Source: a virus
Taxonomy: Duplodnaviria; Caudoviricetes
IMG/VR virus record: IMGVR_UViG_3300010371_000040
Span: 1 to 59,889 of that record
Length of the DNA stretch: 59,889 nt
Direction: 5' to 3' (one strand)
The position numbers were made by a program, and so were the translations under genes. The notes beneath the pieces were generated by a model. The model was not told the DNA's origin. It made no database searches and was given only the letters and a program-made list of their open reading frames with translations. Positions within the stretch are counted from its first letter, which is position 1; every line of letters starts with the position of its first letter. Shown here in pieces: positions 18,415-32,611 of this stretch.

Positions 18415-20313
18415 ATGAGCGATTTCAACTGGGACGCCCTGCAGGAAGGCTTCTATGACTTCCTTTCTCACGTCCAAATTCTGAGTAAGGACGAGGGCCG
18501 CGTCCGCCTGCGCATGTACGACGCGCAGCGCTATTTCTTCGATGAGATTTTCGACGGCCTTCGCAACGACATCCACTGGTTCGTTTGCGGCAAGGGCAGG
18601 CAGCTCGGGATCACGACCGCATGCCTGATGTTCGACACCTTCTACGCCGGCGCCATGCCCGACGTGCAGGGCGGCATCGTGTTCGATACCACCGACAACA
18701 AGGAGAAGTTCCGCAAGCTGCTCGACGAGATGATGATGTCTCTGCCGCCGAGCCACGCGCTGCCGATCCGCAAAGGGGGCAACAACCGCGCCGGCATCAC
18801 GTTCGAAAACGGCAACATGCTGGACTACCTCGTCGCCGGCATCAAACGCGGAACCGGCACGCTCGGCAACTCCCGTGCGCTCAATTTCAGCCACGCGAGC
18901 GAATGCGCCTACTACGGCGACAGCGAGGCGGTGCAGGCATACAAGAACGTGCTGTCGGACGTGTTCCCGACCAGGCTGTACATCTTCGAGTCGACGGCCA
19001 AGGGGTACAACCTGTTCTACGACCTGTGGGAAGAGGCGGTCGCCGACGAGGTTGCCAAGAAGGCGATATTCATCGGCTGGTGGCGCAAGCGGACCTATAG
19101 CCACGCCAAGGGCACGCCGCTATTCCAGCGCTATGGGTGGCCGAAACTATCCGACGACGAGCGCGAGCGGTCCAAGATCGTTGATGACCTTTACGGGGCG
19201 AAGATCACGATTGAGCAATGGGCGTGGTATCGCCATCGCGCCGATCCGGCCGGACGCGCGAACGAGGAAGAGAACCAGTCCGAGCAGCGCGAGATGGTCG
19301 CGCAGGAGCATCCGACCCATCCCGAGGAGATGTTCCGCGAATCGGGCAACCCCTTCATCCCGTCGCAATATCTCGACCCGGCGATGAAGATCGCGCAAAA
19401 GGCGATGTTCAAGGGATACCGCTATCACCTCGGCGACGACATCTCGACCATGCGGCTGGAAAAGACGAAGTTCGTCAACCAGACGCAGATGCGCGTGTGG
19501 CAGGAGCCGTCGCCCACAGGCGTCTATATCGTCGCCGCCGATACCGCGTTCGGCATATCCGACGACGGCGATGCGCAATGCGCCCAGGTCGTGCGCTGCT
19601 ACGCCGACAAGATGGTGCAGGTCGCCGAGTTCTGCGACCGCAGCGTGCAGCCGTTCCAATTCGCGTGGATTCTGCTGCACCTATGCGGCTGGTACGGCGA
19701 CTGCCGGTTTATCCTTGAGCTCAACGGCGCCGGCGAGGCGGTGTGGACCGAACTCAAGAACCTGAAGCAGCGGGTCGAGAACGGCTCGCTCTATCCACCG
19801 CGGCCTTTCCCCGGCGACGACCCGAACGACGAGGACACCGCCGAAGCGCGCAACACCTATGCCCGGGTGCGGCAGTACCTGTTCCGGCGATCGGACAGCC
19901 TGGGCGGCGGCATGAACTGGCAGATGAGGACCAGCCTCGAGACCAAGTTCAATTTCATGACGCAGTTCGCCGACCGCTTCATGCTCGGCCAGTTCGATAT
20001 TTTCTCGGTGCCGGCGCTGAAGGAAATGCAGACGCTGAACAAGGACGGCCGCATGATCCACGCGGCCGGCAAGGGCAAGGACGACCGCCCGGTTACGCTC
20101 GGGCTGGCGACGCGGGCCTATATCGACGATATTCGCGCGCAGCTTGTCGGCAAGAACATGACGTTCGAGGCCGAGGAACTGAAGGCCCGCGAGGGCGGCG
20201 AGACGTTGCACGGGCGGTTTCTGAGTTCGATCATGGAGCGACAATTCGCGCTGAAGGCGGCGGACAGGCGGGCGGTGACGCGGCGCAAGCAGGGCAAGAA
20301 TTGGTCATGGTGA
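18415..20313 (+). CDS. terL: terminase large subunit
   Basis: Walker A KGRQLGITT, Walker B HASE, ESTAKG coupling motif, nuclease acidic residues (AADTAFG, ELNG, KDDR). Confidence 0.92.
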   Translation: MSDFNWDALQEGFYDFLSHVQILSKDEGRVRLRMYDAQRYFFDEIFDGLRNDIHWFVCGKGRQLGITTACLMFDTFYAGAMPDVQGGIVFDTTDNKEKFRKLLDEMMMSLPPSHALPIRKGGNNRAGITFENGNMLDYLVAGIKRGTGTLGNSRALNFSHASECAYYGDSEAVQAYKNVLSDVFPTRLYIFESTAKGYNLFYDLWEEAVADEVAKKAIFIGWWRKRTYSHAKGTPLFQRYGWPKLSDDERERSKIVDDLYGAKITIEQWAWYRHRADPAGRANEEENQSEQREMVAQEHPTHPEEMFRESGNPFIPSQYLDPAMKIAQKAMFKGYRYHLGDDISTMRLEKTKFVNQTQMRVWQEPSPTGVYIVAADTAFGISDDGDAQCAQVVRCYADKMVQVAEFCDRSVQPFQFAWILLHLCGWYGDCRFILELNGAGEAVWTELKNLKQRVENGSLYPPRPFPGDDPNDEDTAEARNTYARVRQYLFRRSDSLGGGMNWQMRTSLETKFNFMTQFADRFMLGQFDIFSVPALKEMQTLNKDGRMIHAAGKGKDDRPVTLGLATRAYIDDIRAQLVGKNMTFEAEELKAREGGETLHGRFLSSIMERQFALKAADRRAVTRRKQGKNWSW

Positions 20314-21116: not shown

Positions 21117-21977
21117 ATGTCATACCTATGCATCTACCACGCGAATTGCGCCGATGGCTTCGCCGCCGCCTGGGTCGTTCACCGCGCTCTCGGCGATCAG
21201 GTCGAATTCCACGCCGCGACCTATGGCGACACGCCGCCCGAGGTCATCAACAAGCACGTACTGGTCGTCGATTTCTCGTACCCGCTCGAAGACCTGACCC
21301 GTATGCAGTCTCGGGCTAACAGCGTGATGGTGCTCGACCACCACAAGACTGCCGAGGCCGATCTGCGCGACATCGAGGCCGGATCGGCGTCGTTCCACAA
21401 TCACGATCACGTCGGTCTACGGGCGATCTTCAATCAGACGACTTCCGGCGCGGGCCTCGTATGGGATTGGTTCAACCCGGGCGATCCGAGGCCGCTGATC
21501 ATCGACTACGTCGAGGACCGCGACCTGTGGAAGTTCCAGAAGGACCACTCGCGCGAAATCAACTCCTTCATCTCCACCATCGAAGATGACTTCGGGGTCT
21601 GGGATACGGAGGCCGAATCGCTTGAAGACGATCTCGGCTTTGAGATGGCCCGAGGGATCGGTCACACACTCGAAAAGTGGAAGCGGGAGTACGTCGACGA
21701 TGCCGTCAGCGCGAGCAAACGCATCATGCGGATCGGCGGCCACGATGTTCCGTGCGCGAACGTGCCGTTCCGCATGGCTTCCGACGCGGGCAATCTTATG
21801 TGCAAGGGCAATCCGTTCGCGGCCACGTATTGCGACACGGAAAAGGGGCGCGTATTCAGCCTGCGCTCGACCGACGCCGGGCTCGATGTGTCCGTTGTCG
21901 CCAAGTCCTACGGCGGCGGCGGGCACCGGAATGCCAGCGGATTCAAGATGCCGATCGGCTGGGAAGGAGACCTGTAA
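21117..21977 (+). CDS. DHH/DHHA1 phosphoesterase
   Basis: YHANCADG, VDFS, LDHH, DRDLW, GGGGHRNASGF. Confidence 0.9.
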   Translation: MSYLCIYHANCADGFAAAWVVHRALGDQVEFHAATYGDTPPEVINKHVLVVDFSYPLEDLTRMQSRANSVMVLDHHKTAEADLRDIEAGSASFHNHDHVGLRAIFNQTTSGAGLVWDWFNPGDPRPLIIDYVEDRDLWKFQKDHSREINSFISTIEDDFGVWDTEAESLEDDLGFEMARGIGHTLEKWKREYVDDAVSASKRIMRIGGHDVPCANVPFRMASDAGNLMCKGNPFAATYCDTEKGRVFSLRSTDAGLDVSVVAKSYGGGGHRNASGFKMPIGWEGDL

Positions 21978-22348: not shown

Positions 22349-24046
22349 ATGCTGCTGCCATCCAGTGACCGCCTCGCCCGCTGGGCCAAGGAACGGGTGA
22401 TCGACCAGTGCCGCAGCAGCGTCGGCGATCGCATGCAGATGGCCCGGTCGATCAACACATGGCGATTCACCGGCAGCGATAGCGGGTCACAGGCGATCTA
22501 TAACCGCCTCGGAACCCACTGCGATAAGCTCTCGTCCGCGGTGTACTCGCCGGCCGACGTCCGCTACCAGATCGAGTACGAGTCCGACTATGGATCGATC
22601 TTCACGGACAGAGCCAAGGTCGCGGCCCGCTATCTGACGCGCGAGATCGCCCAGCGTAACCTCGACCTGTCGTTCCAGGAGGCCGTGGAGGAAGCCGTCC
22701 CGCTCGGTTGCGCGATCCTCAAGCACATCTGGACGCACCACGGCCCCGACGTCACCACGCTGATGCCGTGGCAGTTCGGTGTCTATAACGAGGCGGAAAC
22801 GGATCTCGATAAGCAGGAGGCGATGTGCGAGACGACCTACTTGCTGCCCGAGGAAGTCTGGCGCCGCATCAGCCACCGCTCGGACGCCAAGGAACTCTTC
22901 CGCCGGATCATGTCGCACTCCCGCCGTGCGTCTCAGGATGAGGTTCCGCCTGGCTTCATGCACCAGCTTCTGATGGCTGGCACCCCGCCGCTGATCCAGG
23001 ACCAAGGCGCGGCATCGAGCCCCGGCGGCATGATCTCGCTCACCGGCACGCCGGCGGTTGCGATGATGGCCGCCGAGATGCAGGACGGTCTCATCGAGGC
23101 GCACCAGGCGTGGGTGGTGAACGACGAGACCGGCGACTACACGACGATCCAGCTCATCGAGCCGGACATCCTGATCGCGCCGCGGCTGATCCGCTCGAAC
23201 CTGTTTTTCCCGCACGAGCACCCGTTCAATGTCGTGCGCGTCAATCCGCAGCGGAACTACTTCTGGGGCATGTCCGAGCTCTCGCAGTTGATCAAGCTCC
23301 AGGCGCTGCTGCGCGACCGCACCGAGGACGTGAAGAAGATCATGGGCCTCCAGTACGACCGTATCCGCGCGTTCATCGGCTTCTCGGGCATGAACGATGA
23401 GAAGTACGACCAGATGACCAACGAGGGGTGGCTGTCTGAGGAAAACCCCAACGCGAAGATCGACGACCTGACGCCACCGCTGCCCGAGAACGCATTCAAC
23501 GAGATCAAGATGATCATCGATTTCTTCGATGAGATCGCCGGGTTCGATAATGCGACGTCGGGCAAGGGCGAGCCGGGCATCCGGTCGGCGAACCACTTTC
23601 AGGGCGTGCTTCGGCAGGCATCCCCGCGTCTGCGCGACCGCGCAATCCGGGTCGAGCGCCAGTGCGCGGAGTTCGGCGAGAAGGTTTTGTGGCACTGCGC
23701 CGCGAAGGACGCCCGGGTTTTCTGGACGAAGACCGACGATCCGGAGAAAAAGACCGATTTCCTGCTGTCACAGCTTCCCGATGACGCTCGCGTGCTGGTC
23801 GACAGCCATTCCGCGAGCCCGATCTACGAGCAGGACCATGCGAATACGGCGGCGTTTTTGTTCAAAAGTGGCGCCATCGACAGCGAAGATTTGTTGAACC
23901 TTCTTCCGGTACCAAACAGAGATTTTCTCATCGAGAAACTTAAAAACAGGGAAATATCGAAGCGCCAGATGCTGGAGAGTCTTCCGCCCGAGCTACGCGC
24001 CCAAGTCATTACCGGAAAGACCGTCAGCCACGCCGGAAAGCATTGA
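22349..24046 (+). CDS. portal protein
   Basis: 565 aa, downstream of terL and upstream of scaffold/capsid; YFWGMSELSQLIKLQ motif like podovirus portals. Confidence 0.8.
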   Translation: MLLPSSDRLARWAKERVIDQCRSSVGDRMQMARSINTWRFTGSDSGSQAIYNRLGTHCDKLSSAVYSPADVRYQIEYESDYGSIFTDRAKVAARYLTREIAQRNLDLSFQEAVEEAVPLGCAILKHIWTHHGPDVTTLMPWQFGVYNEAETDLDKQEAMCETTYLLPEEVWRRISHRSDAKELFRRIMSHSRRASQDEVPPGFMHQLLMAGTPPLIQDQGAASSPGGMISLTGTPAVAMMAAEMQDGLIEAHQAWVVNDETGDYTTIQLIEPDILIAPRLIRSNLFFPHEHPFNVVRVNPQRNYFWGMSELSQLIKLQALLRDRTEDVKKIMGLQYDRIRAFIGFSGMNDEKYDQMTNEGWLSEENPNAKIDDLTPPLPENAFNEIKMIIDFFDEIAGFDNATSGKGEPGIRSANHFQGVLRQASPRLRDRAIRVERQCAEFGEKVLWHCAAKDARVFWTKTDDPEKKTDFLLSQLPDDARVLVDSHSASPIYEQDHANTAAFLFKSGAIDSEDLLNLLPVPNRDFLIEKLKNREISKRQMLESLPPELRAQVITGKTVSHAGKH

Positions 24047-24068
24047 GGGGAGGCTTTCGCCTCCCCTC
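24045..24068. terminator. hairpin between convergent portal gene and pentamer array
   Basis: GAGGGGAGGC-TTTC-GCCTCCCCTC, perfect 10-bp stem, GAAA loop on the minus strand. Confidence 0.8.
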
Positions 24069-24070
24069 CC

Positions 24071-24450
24071 CTGCCTGACCAGACCTCTGCTCACCGCGCC
24101 TCGCGATACCGCACCCCGGCGCAGCTTGCCAAGCCAAGCCAAACTCTAAATCTCTAAAATAATCCTCGCCGCACCTATCCATTGCACACCTCACCGAGGC
24201 CGTCCTTGCCCAGCACCGCCCTACAGGACCAAGCCGCGCCGAAACTGAAATTGATAAATAAATCCTCGCCAGACCACACCCGGCCACGGCTGACCAAACA
24301 CTGCACCGCCACACCCAATTCGACCTTGGACCGCCGGACCTAAGCCCGCCATTCCACGCGCAACCCTGCCGAAGCATTCCGCGCCTAGCCTTGCCTAACA
24401 CCGCACAACCTCGCCGGGCCATGGCTAGCCAATCCCAGCCGTGCCGGACC
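24071..24450 (-). ncRNA. putative guide-RNA array of GGY-NN pentamers (three blocks)
   Basis: Blocks 24450-24261 (38 units), 24240-24161 (16) and 24140-24071 (14), all in one 5-nt register; 42 of 68 units start GGC/GGT; two 20-nt AT-rich linkers each preceded by GGCGAGGATT. Confidence 0.8.
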
Positions 24451-24452
24451 CC

Positions 24453-25076
24453 TTATCCTGCCTCAATCGAAAAGTTGGAAATGCCGAAACGACCGTAAGT
24501 CGGCCGGAAATCGCCGACGCCGACCAGACGACCAGCGGACTCGATGGTCTCGCGCAGGTCGTTGGTCGAAATGTACTCAGGTAGGCCGCACATCAGTTGG
24601 ATTTCGGCGGCCCAACCCGCCCGCATCGCAGGACGCGTGCGCGTGATCGCCGACCGTTGAATGACGACCCGCCGCCGATCCTCGTAGTCCCAATCCGGGG
24701 TTCCGAGAGAGGCCAATTCGGTCAGGCTGACGATCCCGGCGTTGAATAAATCCATCGCCGACTTCCGGGGGCTGCGCGGGTCCTGACGGAACTTCGCCGC
24801 CATCACGATCGACCGCCGCAGGTATTCGCCGGGCAGGCAGAGCATCCCCGCCTCGTCGCGGTAGACGTAGCTTTCCAGATCGTCGCTCTTTTTGGCCGCG
24901 CTGTTCTTCGCCGCCTTCGCCTTGGTCTCGACGGCCTCCGAATTCCACCGATGGAACAGGATCGCCGCCGATCCCACGATTGTGACGCGCGCGATGTACG
25001 GCTCGCTGAGTGCGATGTCCGAGTTTCCGCCGGGCGAAACGCCGTCGATGACCTTCAATGCTGCTGACTTTGCCAC
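24453..25076 (-). CDS. solitary Cas7/RAMP-like protein
   Basis: N-terminal beta strand (ARVTIVGSAAILFH), LPGEYLRRSI, C-terminal glycine loop AGRLVGVGDFRPTYGRF; GTG start behind AAGGAG. Confidence 0.75.
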   Translation of the reverse strand: MAKSAALKVIDGVSPGGNSDIALSEPYIARVTIVGSAAILFHRWNSEAVETKAKAAKNSAAKKSDDLESYVYRDEAGMLCLPGEYLRRSIVMAAKFRQDPRSPRKSAMDLFNAGIVSLTELASLGTPDWDYEDRRRVVIQRSAITRTRPAMRAGWAAEIQLMCGLPEYISTNDLRETIESAGRLVGVGDFRPTYGRFGISNFSIEAG

Positions 25077-25160
25077 TTGCAATCTCCTTGCCTAAAAACG
25101 CCATATGTCGTATGGCTCGCGCATTGCTATTAGCACTACGTATTGCAGGGAGCAAGCATT

Positions 25161-25316
25161 ATGTCCGAGAAAGTCGCGGTAACCTTCCGCATCGAGAAAA
25201 AGCTGAGAGACCAGCTTGAGAAAATCGCACATTTCGAGCGCCGGACGATGACCGGCGTCATTGAAGCGATGATCGATGATCGGTGGAAGCAGACGCCGGA
25301 CGGGAAGGCCGACTAA
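25161..25316 (+). CDS. ribbon-helix-helix (Arc/CopG-like) regulator
   Basis: Not in the ORF track; MSEKVAVTFRIEKKLRDQLEKIAHFERRTMTGVIEAMI..., GGGAG RBS, divergent from the RAMP gene. Confidence 0.75.
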   Translation: MSEKVAVTFRIEKKLRDQLEKIAHFERRTMTGVIEAMIDDRWKQTPDGKAD

Positions 25317-25591
25317 AACTGCGGCTTGTTCGTCTGCTCGAACGGCACTCGCTTCCGCACCAACGCATGCAGCGCACTCCCGATGCTCTCGGCACCCATG
25401 ATCTGCGCCGCCGTATCAGCATCGATGCCAGGATAGAAACCCTTGTTTCCCGCCGGGTTCTTGACCGTCGGCGCGAAGTGAACGTGAAGCTGTTGCGCCT
25501 GTGCGTCGTACCCGATTTTCAGGATGTGGCTTGATAGCACTTCCTGCATCTCGACGGGCGGCGGGGCGGGTTGCTGATTTTCTTCGTCCAT
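25313..25591 (-). CDS. KTSC domain protein
   Basis: VLSSHILKIGYD...LHVHF...FYPGI...AESIGS..HALVR. Confidence 0.8.
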   Translation of the reverse strand: MDEENQQPAPPPVEMQEVLSSHILKIGYDAQAQQLHVHFAPTVKNPAGNKGFYPGIDADTAAQIMGAESIGSALHALVRKRVPFEQTNKPQF

Positions 25592-27536: not shown

Positions 27537-28559
27537 GTGACCTTCCCGCTTTCCGGAACTGGCATCGCACCGACAGGGCCAGTCTTCAGCGAACTCAACG
27601 CCCTGACGCGCCGCGCATTCATTCCGACGGTGGTCACGCAGCTCTATTTCTCGAGCCCGTCCCTGTTCATGCTGATGGGTGCGGCCCAACGCGCGGCCGG
27701 CGGCCTCAACCAGATCACGGTGCCGGTGCAGGGCCAGTCGATGGTCCAGGGTGCCTGGACCGGCTATGCGGGCAACTTCAACAGGCCTCAGGTCATCCCC
27801 GGCGTTCAGCCCGCCCAGTGGATGCTGAGCTACTATACCGTCCCGGTCCCGCTGGTCATGGGCGAGGCGCTCATCCAGTCGACCGAGGCGATCGTTCCGA
27901 TCATCGACGTCCGCATGAACGACGTGTACGCGGTGATGGCGCAGCAGTTCTCAAGCGCGCTGTTCAGCAACAACTCGGCGAATTCGCTGATGCCGCAGGG
28001 TTTCGTCGAGGCATTCGACGATGGCAGCCAGGTGCCGGTCTACGGCGGCATCGCGCGCAACCAGGGCGGAAACCAGTTCTGGCAGTCCAACCGCATCACC
28101 AATGTCGGCGCCAACAACACGCGCGCCGCCTGGTCGACCTATCTGATCCAGGTGACCAAGCTGGCCGGCGGCGAGACGCCCGATTTCGTGCTGATGTCAC
28201 CCGGCGACTTCGCCGTCCTGGCGGCGCAGTTCATCGGTGTCGAGCAGATCAACATACGTCCGGGCCAGCAGTTCACGATGGACACGAACATCCGGTCGGG
28301 CTTCCCGAACGTGATGATCAACGGGGTGCCGTTCTTCCTCGACTACTCGTGCCCGACCGGCACGGCGTATATGGCGAACAGCAAGTATTACGCCATGCAT
28401 ATCAGTGAGGACGCGCAGTTCGACTTCACCGGGTTCTATAGCCTTGTTCCATTGGGGCAATTGGCCGTCGTAGGCGTAGCTTACACCGGGTATAATGTGA
28501 TTTGCTCAAAGCCCGTTTCTGGTGCAAGTTTCAGTGGCATCACTGGGGCGCCATTTTAG
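27537..28559 (+). CDS. major capsid protein
   Basis: 340 aa, strong AAGGAG RBS, biased codon use, position after scaffold. Confidence 0.8.
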   Translation: MTFPLSGTGIAPTGPVFSELNALTRRAFIPTVVTQLYFSSPSLFMLMGAAQRAAGGLNQITVPVQGQSMVQGAWTGYAGNFNRPQVIPGVQPAQWMLSYYTVPVPLVMGEALIQSTEAIVPIIDVRMNDVYAVMAQQFSSALFSNNSANSLMPQGFVEAFDDGSQVPVYGGIARNQGGNQFWQSNRITNVGANNTRAAWSTYLIQVTKLAGGETPDFVLMSPGDFAVLAAQFIGVEQINIRPGQQFTMDTNIRSGFPNVMINGVPFFLDYSCPTGTAYMANSKYYAMHISEDAQFDFTGFYSLVPLGQLAVVGVAYTGYNVICSKPVSGASFSGITGAPF

Positions 28560-31655: not shown

Positions 31656-32611
31656 TGGGCGCGCTGTATGGGTATATGCAGGCGACCCAGCGACTGCTTT
31701 CCGATGAAGTCCAGGCGGTTTATTCGCTGGATGACCTGGAGAACTATATCCAGCAGGGCCGCGAAGAAGTGGCGATGCAGGGGCAGTGCATCCGGCGGAC
31801 TACGCCCATCTCCGGCTCGATCATGGCGCTCCAGGTGGTCAACCCGGGGTCGGGCTACACCAACCCGACCATCCAGATATCGCCGCCCGACTCGCCGCAG
31901 GGGTTGTTGCCCTATCCCACCGGAGCTCAAGCGACGGGTACGCTTCAGCAGATCGGTGGCCAGATTTCCAACGGCAGCGTCAGCTTCGGCGGCAGCGGGT
32001 ACTATGCGCCGGCCGCGACGGTGGTCGATCCGACCGGCACAGGAGCCGTCGTGCAGCCGATCGTCTCGCCGGTATCGCAGACCACGTACGGGCAGGAGAC
32101 GTATCAGTTCGCCGATTTCCCGATGTCGATGTATCCCGGCGTCGGCCCGATCTTCGCCGCGCGCAGCGTGTCGGTGCAGTGGACGCAGTGGCAATATAGC
32201 ATCAGCTTCGTCTCGTTCTCGAAATACCAGGCGCTGGTCCGGCAGTACGTGTCGTCGTTCTTCGCGCCGCCCGTGATCGGCTGCCAGTTCGGGCAAGGCA
32301 CCGACGGCAGCTTCAAGCTCTATCCGCTGGCCGACCAGAACTATCAGCTCACGCTCGATGCGCTGTGCCTGCCGCTTCCGCTGCTCGACGACCAGTCGCC
32401 GGAAGCGATCCCCGACCCGTTCACCCGCGCGGTGCCGTATTACGCCGCCCACTTGGCGCTTCTTGGCCGCGCCTCGATGTTTCCGCAATACTCGCAACTC
32501 GCCATGGCCTATTTCAATCCCAAGGACGGCGGCCTTTTCGGCATGTATTTGCGCCGCGCTTGCGCGTTCACCCAACCAGGCCGGGTCAGCAGCTTCTATA
32601 GCCGGATATGA
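31655..32611 (+). CDS. head-tail adaptor paralog 3 with GSGY insert
   Basis: LENYIQQGR...IPDPFTRAVPYYAAHLA. Confidence 0.7.
   Translation: MGALYGYMQATQRLLSDEVQAVYSLDDLENYIQQGREEVAMQGQCIRRTTPISGSIMALQVVNPGSGYTNPTIQISPPDSPQGLLPYPTGAQATGTLQQIGGQISNGSVSFGGSGYYAPAATVVDPTGTGAVVQPIVSPVSQTTYGQETYQFADFPMSMYPGVGPIFAARSVSVQWTQWQYSISFVSFSKYQALVRQYVSSFFAPPVIGCQFGQGTDGSFKLYPLADQNYQLTLDALCLPLPLLDDQSPEAIPDPFTRAVPYYAAHLALLGRASMFPQYSQLAMAYFNPKDGGLFGMYLRRACAFTQPGRVSSFYSRI

Follow-up and report, generated by a model that had tools for sequence, protein, structure and literature searches.

A VIPR Guide That Matches the Portal Gene of Most Related Phages Better than the Carrier's Own Copy

The window analyzed here is a whole IMG/VR virus record from a soil phage (Caudoviricetes; IMGVR_UViG_3300010371_000040; 59,889 bp, with a completeness estimate of 98%), and directly downstream of its portal gene lies a Viral Interference Programmable Repeat (VIPR) locus, the third guide of which matches a site in the portal gene, and does so better in most related phages than in the carrier itself. 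We consider it fairly probable, with room for doubt, that this guide is directed against the portal gene in sibling phages, with the carrier spared at the level of the allele. The novelty is modest but real: the guide is set against an essential structural gene present in the carrier as well, and self would be told from non-self by five bases, in three codons, beside the array.

VIPR has so far been described only in preprints of 2026. As described there, vrRNAs consist of tandem YNNGG units, typically 9–16 and up to about 30, of which only the NN bases contact the DNA, with one target base, usually the wobble base of a codon, skipped between pairs; the complexes silence transcription, and natural targets are called at an NN match of at least 80%. 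According to the same body of preprint work, about 90% of published guides skip the wobble base, several VIPR types carry DNA-binding vap genes, and the natural targets published include a satellite recombinase, prophage regulators, other vipr genes, and vrRNAs.

The VIPR Locus Downstream of the Portal Gene

The 1.27-kb segment from the portal stop codon to the KTSC-domain gene (24047–25316), which a preliminary description of this DNA had called a cassette, is on the evidence of its sequence a VIPR locus, made up of a vipr gene, an Arc-like candidate accessory gene, and an array of GGY-NN units downstream of vipr on the minus strand. To the same extent, it is a further member of a large known family, as its protein, its array, its skip-rule target, and its viral setting all agree with what defines VIPR. 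Its features are as follows, in window coordinates and nucleotides (nt).

24045–24068, no strand assigned: perfect 10-bp hairpin with a 4-nt loop (GAGGGGAGGC / GCCTCCCCTC; inverted repeat I14), overlapping the portal stop codon and closing the minus-strand array
24071–24140, minus strand: vrRNA block 3, 14 units (10 perfect GGY), of which the first 12 (24081–24140) are the portal-directed guide
24141–24170, minus strand: AT-rich 30-nt element, in register (units 60–65), starting GGCGAGGATT; candidate 3′ tail of vrRNA 2
24171–24240, minus strand: vrRNA block 2, 14 units; no target found
24241–24270, minus strand: AT-rich 30-nt element, in register, starting GGCGAGGATT; candidate 3′ tail of vrRNA 1
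24271–24450, minus strand: vrRNA block 1, 36 units, partly degenerate; no target found
24453–25082, minus strand: vipr gene, encoding a RAMP-like Vipr protein, a 209-residue open reading frame (ORF) as listed from a TTG at 25082; homology to PDB 36pp_D
25161–25316, plus strand: Arc-like ribbon-helix-helix gene, divergent from vipr; phrog_582 at E = 2.5e-5 and phrog_3180 ("Arc-like repressor") at E = 1.2e-4

Residues 68–203 of the predicted Vipr protein match the solved "SUSP1 Vipr protein" (PDB 36pp_D) with an E-value of 3.2e-7 in phmmer and 1.9e-9 with a four-sequence profile, the alignment taking in the C-terminal G-rich stretch GVGDFRPxYGRF. The same ORF matches phrog_4652 (E = 5e-18) and gave no match in Pfam, NCBIfam, or PADLOC. 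It has 243 relatives in IMG/VR, and arrays of the same type as that in the window were called in 81 of the 83 related sequences examined. We note that the listed TTG start codon lies only 1 nt after an AAGGAG Shine–Dalgarno sequence, and that a GTG at 25076, 7 nt after AAGGAG, is the likelier start, giving a protein of 207 residues (25074–25089, minus strand).

The array itself spans 24071–24450 on the minus strand and consists of 76 five-base units in a single register, starting 2 nt after the vipr stop codon. For a VIPR system, at least four tandem YNNGG (GGY/NN) units beside vipr are expected. Perfect GGY units number 42 of 76 in this register; the other registers have 0, 0, 4, and 2, and no count above 16 arose in 2000 shuffles. 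The two AT-rich elements, which fall within a direct repeat (D1; 47 nt, 70% identity, 100-nt spacing), split the array into three blocks, the third of which likely has its 3′ end in the hairpin at 24045–24068; no T-run follows this hairpin, and it is absent from the list produced by the terminator scan. Array ends of the GGYGAGG type occur in 70 of 252 called arrays of related loci, by a crude count. Within block 1, internal GGCGAGG-like and GGAAT-containing stretches may be decayed tails, and this block may contain several guides. The Arc-like gene, without a match in Pfam, NCBIfam, PADLOC, or the PDB, is a candidate accessory (vap) DNA-binding protein. An overlapping minus-strand ORF (24024–24422) encodes an R/G/W/C-rich peptide and was taken as an artifact of the array.

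The Portal-Directed Guide and Its Match in Relatives

Read by the one-base-skip rule, the NN bases of block 3 (units 24140 down to 24081) give the string TT TT AA GC GG GC AT GA GC GA GA CT, and the best site for this string on either strand of the window lies in the portal gene (23858–23892).

22349–24046, plus strand: portal gene, 565 residues; tblastn matches at 30–31% identity over 92–94% of the query to portal-annotated regions in two phage records
23858–23893, plus strand: block-3 target site as present in the carrier, in frame with the codons, such that the base skipped is always the wobble base; 19 of 24 guide bases match

The next best score, 16 of 24, is found at three sites, with none at 17 or 18, and none of 300 shuffled guides reached 19 of 24 in the window. 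The codons of the own site are TTG TTC AAA AGT GGC GCC ATC GAC AGC GAA GAT TTG, and its mismatches are exactly the three named in the preliminary description, namely AGT (23867–23869) and AGC (23882–23884), in both of which neither base pairs, and TTG (23891–23893), in which one of two does, amounting to 5 of 24 bases and 3 of 12 units. If the non-GGY unit at 24141–24145 is also counted, the site extends to 23855 with a match of 21 of 26. The site lies 180–280 nt from the guide and 154–188 nt upstream of the point at which the cassette is inserted. The portal ORF has no Pfam or PHROG match of its own.

When the whole array was slid along the window, the records of three relatives, and three loci, block 3 alone produced an outlier, always at the homologous portal site. 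Two other candidates were set aside: a 19 of 24 match for blocks 1/2 at 32529 on the minus strand, which is not codon-aligned, contains a stop codon, does not extend, and was judged to be due to chance; and comparison of the intergenic DNA with the portal tail by contiguous or period-3 matching, which gave nothing above chance. The preliminary description was right that a guide exists and is aimed at the 3′ region of the portal gene.

For comparison, 11 DNA relatives with 56–73% portal identity were collected from IMG/VR and a metagenome (L002–L005, L120, and L138–L143), and the homologous portal site is the top block-3 match in every relative scanned.

Block-3 scores (of 24) at the homologous portal site: L002, 20; L003, 22; L004, 21; L005, 19; L120, 23; L138, 20
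Continued: L139, 19; L140, 19; L141, 22; L142, 23; L143, 20

Eight of the 11 relatives therefore match the guide at 20–23 of 24, compared to 19 of 24 for self, and the match reaches 25 of 26 when 13 units are considered. With relatives included, the observed score was reached by none of 300 shuffled guides for eight of nine targets, and by 3 of 300 for the genome of L005. In L120, for example, the site reads CTG TTC AAG GCC GGG GCG ATC GAC GCC GAG GAT CTG, so that GCC, GCC, and CTG stand in the places of AGT, AGC, and TTG in the window. Eight remoter relatives (at about 44% identity) score 15–16, and three distant portals that keep the motif score 20–23. As far as the sequences indicate, the guide corresponds in essence to the consensus that the family has for a highly conserved portal motif, (F)LFK-A-GAID-A-EDL, and since it stands so near to this consensus, filaments formed on it should bind the portal genes of siblings.

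At the mismatched columns, relatives have Ser or Ala at the first, Ala, Gly, or Pro (GCN, GGC, or CCN) at the second, and Leu, with a synonymous change, at the third, in agreement with the earlier suggestion that the changes come at little cost to the protein. The AGC at the second Ser column is unique to the window, being present in none of the 11 DNA relatives, and Ser512 occurs in none of 20 other proteins; this AGC is one step from the GGC of L139–L142. Furthermore, both bases are lost in two of the three mismatched units of the own site, whereas relatives mostly lose one base per unit.

Taken together, these observations suggest the following mechanism. The third guide would read the codon-aligned site of the conserved portal motif by the one-base-skip code; Vipr–vrRNA filaments would then bind the portal gene of siblings, and of some remoter phages, and block transcription there. 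The carrier's own copy, which differs at two Ser AGY codons (where the guide has GC) and at a TTG (where the guide has CT), would escape its own guide, and, as the own match lies at or just under the 80% threshold at which targets are called, the carrier is probably spared.

A number of points weigh against this interpretation. The own score depends on the guide length assumed, being 19/24 (79%) with 12 units, 21/26 (81%) with 13, and 20/28 (71%) with 14. For blocks 1 and 2, the sequences covered by the sliding scan offer no target above background, the exact 24/24 target pattern has no match in IMG/VR and none among metagenome contigs, and no RNA run is among the sequencing runs listed with this stretch. 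The AlphaFold model of Vipr is poor (predicted local distance difference test score of 52) and was not used. The parts of the three VIPR preprints considered here yielded no data on mismatch tolerance (the word "mismatch" occurs zero times in the structure paper). Moreover, self is tied for the lowest score with L005, L139, and L140, of which L139 and L140 have no vipr in their flanks; TTG stands at the Leu column in L003, L004, L005, L139, L140, and L143, and AGY at the first Ser column in L139 and L140. Because L139 and L140 carry AGY and TTG with no cassette in their flanks, the mismatches may be ordinary polymorphism of the family. No vipr gene was found in the records of four relatives (30–93% complete) or in the flanks of the others (up to 4 kb), but, given these incomplete records and short flanks, the "cassette-free" state of the relatives is not proven. 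Finally, windows of 36 codons with a GC content at third codon positions (GC3) as low as that of the portal tail discussed below make up 215 of 7988 (2.7%) elsewhere, several of them at gene ends, in a set of 18 hand-picked long ORFs of this phage.

Set against these points, the earlier claim that the cassette favors its carrier over cassette-free relatives gains support from the better match of most relatives to the guide and is weakened by L139 and L140, which match it no better than the carrier does. In the same way, cassette-free relatives had been expected to lack both the codons and the AT-rich tail of the carrier: two of the mismatched codons turn out to be shared, TTG with six relatives and the first AGY with two, while the AGC and the AT-rich tail are found in none of the 11.

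The Diverged Portal Tail and Competing Explanations

The preliminary description had placed a switch from GC3-rich to AT-rich codons near 23850. The codons quoted for it (TTT TTG TTC AAA AGT; CCA AAC AGA; AAA CTT AAA) are present and the switch is real, but a sliding GC3 plot puts its onset at 23864.

23864–23971, plus strand: diverged patch rich in A or T at third codon positions (AT3-rich), portal residues 506–541, containing the three mismatched codons and five residues unseen in relatives

In windows of 20 codons, the GC3 of the portal gene is mostly 0.8–1.0 (lowest 0.65) and then 0.45–0.50 over 23864–23968, and G/C-ending codons make up 20 of 36 in the patch (GC3 0.56) compared to 434 of 500 in the body of the gene (0.87; binomial P = 4e-6). 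The lowest 36-codon stretch of the gene is the tail, with a minimum of 19/36 compared to at least 27/36 outside it, and over the same alignment columns GC3 falls by 0.31 in the window compared to at most 0.08 in the 11 relatives. As none of these relatives has a comparable drop, the AT-rich tail is a genuine feature and one particular to this genome. P0005, the closest protein found, has 91% identity before residue 512, with differences at 17 of the last 54 residues compared to 45 of the first 511 (P = 1e-5), and residues found only in the window, in otherwise conserved columns, are S512, N517, F526, I528, and M541. Minor codons of the six-fold families (AGY, AGR, and TTR), which alter bases that the guide reads while leaving the residue the same, account for 9 of 19 in the tail compared to 139 of 754 in reference genes (P = 0.004), an enrichment that cannot be separated from the general shift toward AT.

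The patch starts right after an invariant HANTAAFLFK block and extends toward the cassette. GC3 is 0.62 in the tail, 0.75–0.78 in the cassette genes, and 0.84–0.87 in structural genes. No recombination donor emerged, as no relative has a higher nucleotide identity to the window in the tail than in the body, and the best non-self protein identity in the tail is 79–82%. In a portal tree, the window falls in a polytomy, such that shared ancestry of its AGY with L139 and L140 is possible. The patch is more probably mosaic, or a segment that evolves rapidly, in either case bearing the resistant allele, and may have come in along with the cassette. Since the guide does not read wobble bases, the AT-rich wobble shift is not avoidance and only codon positions 1 and 2 count; the earlier proposal that the tail is recoded to avoid the guide can thus hold for the changes at these two positions but not for the wobble bases. 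A 15-nt direct repeat, 13/15 identical (TTTCTCATCGAGAAA / TTCCGCATCGAGAAA; 23924–23938 and 25185–25199), joins the patch, at F526 and I528, to the Arc-like gene, and was treated as due to chance because 14 direct-repeat families are listed in the 1.5-kb region searched.

Low-GC3 patches also lie near the ends of several further genes, where they might mark mosaic joints across the genome. One such case is an ORF of 340 residues (27537–28559), 78–83% identical in relatives and probably the major capsid protein, the 3′ end of which has low GC3 (17/36, around codon 300).

A possible but rather doubtful alternative to allele-level self-sparing is that the guide is directed at the portal consensus of the family, from which the allele of the carrier's lineage simply happens to differ by ordinary polymorphism, and that the AT-rich patch is an unrelated mosaic joint, a recombination scar, or the product of local drift. 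This would account for the three of 11 relatives that are as mismatched as self, for AGY and TTG among them with no cassette in the flanks, and for an AGC only a single step from the codon of L139–L142; the low-GC3 patches elsewhere in the phage, the irrelevance of the wobble shift to pairing under the skip rule, and the unresolved branching of the portal tree, which leaves the AGY open to shared descent, are likewise consistent with it. However, the three mismatches, the five unique residues, and the compositional shift all fall within 108 nt beside the cassette, and two of the three mismatched units of the carrier lose both bases, whereas relatives mostly lose one base per unit. In addition, an essential gene matching the carrier's own guide would presumably be counter-selected, and some filtering of mismatches is therefore to be expected whatever their origin.

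The preliminary description went further and had the cassette traveling with a resistant portal tail, in the manner of a free-standing homing endonuclease. In T-even phages, such endonucleases and marker exclusion involve a mobile cassette that lies beside a gene whose cassette-free allele it attacks, while the allele of its own genome is altered at the recognition site. The present locus is alike by analogy, as a site for binding and not for cutting, in that the site near the insertion point matches at up to 23/24 in relatives and at 19/24 in self. It is unlike in that the cassette shows no nuclease and no sign of cleavage or of repair-driven copying, and would be expected to act by transcriptional silencing. 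A reading in these terms would have the cassette and the resistant portal tail moving jointly between siblings by recombination, as a selfish module that spreads by selection and linkage with no nuclease: if genomes that lack the cassette are silenced, recombinants that gain the resistant codons will usually also gain the cassette, only 150–280 nt away. We think this unlikely. It gains from a target less than 300 nt from its guide in a genome of 59.9 kb; from a patch that runs from the HANTAAFLFK block, a natural crossover point, to the cassette side; from the excess of differences to P0005 beyond residue 512; from cargo that differs in each relative at the junction between the portal and KTSC genes; and from a cassette GC3 below that of the structural genes.

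It is opposed by the absence of a nuclease domain from the cassette in Pfam, PHROGs, NCBIfam, and PADLOC searches, which leaves no enzyme for repair-driven homing. The comparison with co-conversion goes only as far as a window-specific diverged patch that abuts the cassette side of the portal gene, with no donor lineage and no second carrier found: the arrangement of portal plus cassette is known from one genome only, the exact 29-nt stretch of recoded tail has no matches elsewhere, and neither has the ten-unit guide core in 5-nt spacing, so that the claim that tail and cassette travel together draws on a single genome. The tail GC3 is also below that of the cassette, only one of 82 related vipr loci stands near a homologue of this portal, with guides that match neither its own locus nor related portal loci (see below), and the adjacency may be incidental, as the junction is a general hot spot for cargo. 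The portal protein, moreover, presumably acts in trans and could be shared, such that silencing the portal of a rival in a mixed infection need not hurt that rival selectively. A stronger version, in which guide and resistant portal allele constitute a closely coupled weapon–immunity pair, a nuclease-free and selection-driven analogue of homing that spreads VIPR cassettes through the phage family, strikes us as distinctly unlikely. Were it true, the carrier would survive only through recoded read positions 150–280 nt away, recombinants gaining immunity would tend to gain the cassette, and evolution of the portal tail would be fast and clustered at six-fold-degenerate and conservative positions.

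It is, lastly, improbable that the guide serves self-regulation, with the third Vipr–vrRNA complex weakly binding the 3′ end of its own portal gene, for instance to halt readthrough of the late operon into the convergent cassette or to time portal expression. No site in the genome matches the guide better than the own site, which alone is sure to be available as a target and is matched at 81% with 13 units; it lies just upstream of a convergent gene pair, and published VIPR work allows, in the parts drawn on here, that guides near gene ends may affect downstream genes. Yet a regulatory guide should fit its own site best, whereas scores of 23/24 and 25/26 occur among relatives; two units of the own site have no pairing at all; and the published VIPR surveys, in the same parts, contain no self-target at an NN match of 80% or above.

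Related Loci, Genomic Setting, and Implications

The guides of 82 related vipr loci and of the window were also scanned against each other and against the window, giving 86 matches of at least 20/24 compared to 15 with reversed-order decoys. Two of the 86 fall on the guide's own locus (both at 20/24) and none on a portal gene. In two of these loci, L163 and L192, with arrays at about 3119 and about 5781, guides score 21/24 at conserved sites that lie within vipr genes elsewhere (L128, L171, L174, L180, L196, L197, L208, L213, L215–L218, and L223–L225), in the region encoding RTRPAMKAGW and in the antisense of that encoding KKSDDVESYVY. Such matches suggest that VIPR systems of this clade are turned against one another, a conflict that the preprints report from other clades. 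L202 (6001–11489) is the only one of the 82 loci near a homologue of this portal gene, its vipr lying just upstream of terminase and portal genes; its guides have no match of 18/24 or more in their own locus or in four related portal loci.

One of the closest known systems is the Type II VIPR of Escherichia phage SUSP1, as described in the parts of two preprints (bioRxiv 10.64898/2026.04.26.720920; 10.64898/2026.04.26.720927) drawn on here. The two share a RAMP-like Vipr, GGY-NN units downstream of it, carriage by a phage, 14-unit guide blocks within the published range of 9–16, a small candidate accessory gene of DNA-binding type, and a codon-aligned target read with one base skipped. They differ in that the Vipr of the window is only distantly similar (E = 3e-7, over residues 69–203), that all 76 units and both AT-rich spacers share one register, that the tail elements are AT-rich and start with GGCGAGGATT, and that the candidate accessory gene is an Arc-like ribbon-helix-helix gene, as against vap1; moreover, the target here is the portal gene of siblings, whereas that of SUSP1 is a satellite recombinase.

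A parallel for self-sparing is offered by the vrRNA-targeting vrRNAs of SUSP1-family phages, for which self scores are lower than non-self scores, a pattern read in the preprint passages concerned as avoidance of autoimmunity (bioRxiv 10.64898/2026.10.15.759431). There, as here, the guide fits rivals better than the homologous sequence of the carrier; the shared sequence is in that case the vrRNA locus, whereas here it is an essential structural gene next to the array, with a match of 79–81%. For the target classes of vipr genes and satellites, the same authors state that the carrier's own homology covers no target region (bioRxiv 10.64898/2026.10.15.759431). The VIPR clade of Pseudomonas fulva prophages (bioRxiv 10.64898/2026.04.26.720920), as far as it is described in the parts considered, likewise directs guides against genes of competing phages of the same host; those guides center on lysis–lysogeny regulators of resident prophages, whereas here the one target identified is the portal gene. 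In the one preprint in which a full-text search found the portal named together with vrRNA, the passages considered treat it as a hallmark of prophages or satellites and not as a VIPR target. VIPR is also likened to Class 1 (Cascade-type) CRISPR-Cas, in which RAMP-family filaments form on a guide RNA and bases are flipped out periodically. It differs, according to the parts of the preprints considered, in its gapped 2+1 pairing and in that no protospacer adjacent motif is reported for it. The window contains no Rfam family, no long direct-repeat array lies in 23700–25200 or 23900–24600, and PADLOC gives no match for three proteins of the region.

The genes around the locus include the following.

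18415–20313, upstream of the portal gene: large terminase (phrog_2)
25313–25591, minus strand: KTSC-domain gene (Pfam PF13619, E = 1.3e-6), with tblastn matches in L002–L005, L120, L138, and L141–L143

From its conservation, the KTSC gene is part of the conserved backbone and marks the far boundary of the 1.27-kb insertion. In L004, it comes immediately after the portal gene, the two stop codons lying 2 nt apart. The gap between the convergent portal and KTSC genes (24047–25312) is a hot spot for cargo, with other genes present there in each relative (L002–L005, L120, and L138–L143). Between the terminase and portal genes lies a gene for a DHH-family phosphoesterase (21117–21977; phrog_4771, E = 2e-94), which is conserved in L002 and L003. 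A blastn search against phage records gave no match; a first scan of bacterial genomes gave no prophage relatives, and a profile scan gave one relative, at 44% identity, in a metagenome-assembled genome of Actinomycetes. Scans of the window for Rfam families, tRNAs, and promoters gave nothing relevant, and the count from the terminator scan is no higher than in shuffles. In the single DNA sequencing run associated with the stretch (a possible source sample, with its contigs), the contig is identical, with no variants and no alternative junctions.

If the guide is indeed aimed at sibling portal genes while sparing the carrier's own allele, then the locus offers a test case for which NN mismatches, and how many, a Vipr filament tolerates. 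It also bears on how a target may escape guides that are proof against wobble changes, namely through switches between codon families (Ser AGY/TCN, Leu, and Arg) and conservative replacements. In this sense, the third guide and the portal allele beside it are a candidate case of linkage between weapon and immunity in the conflict between phages.

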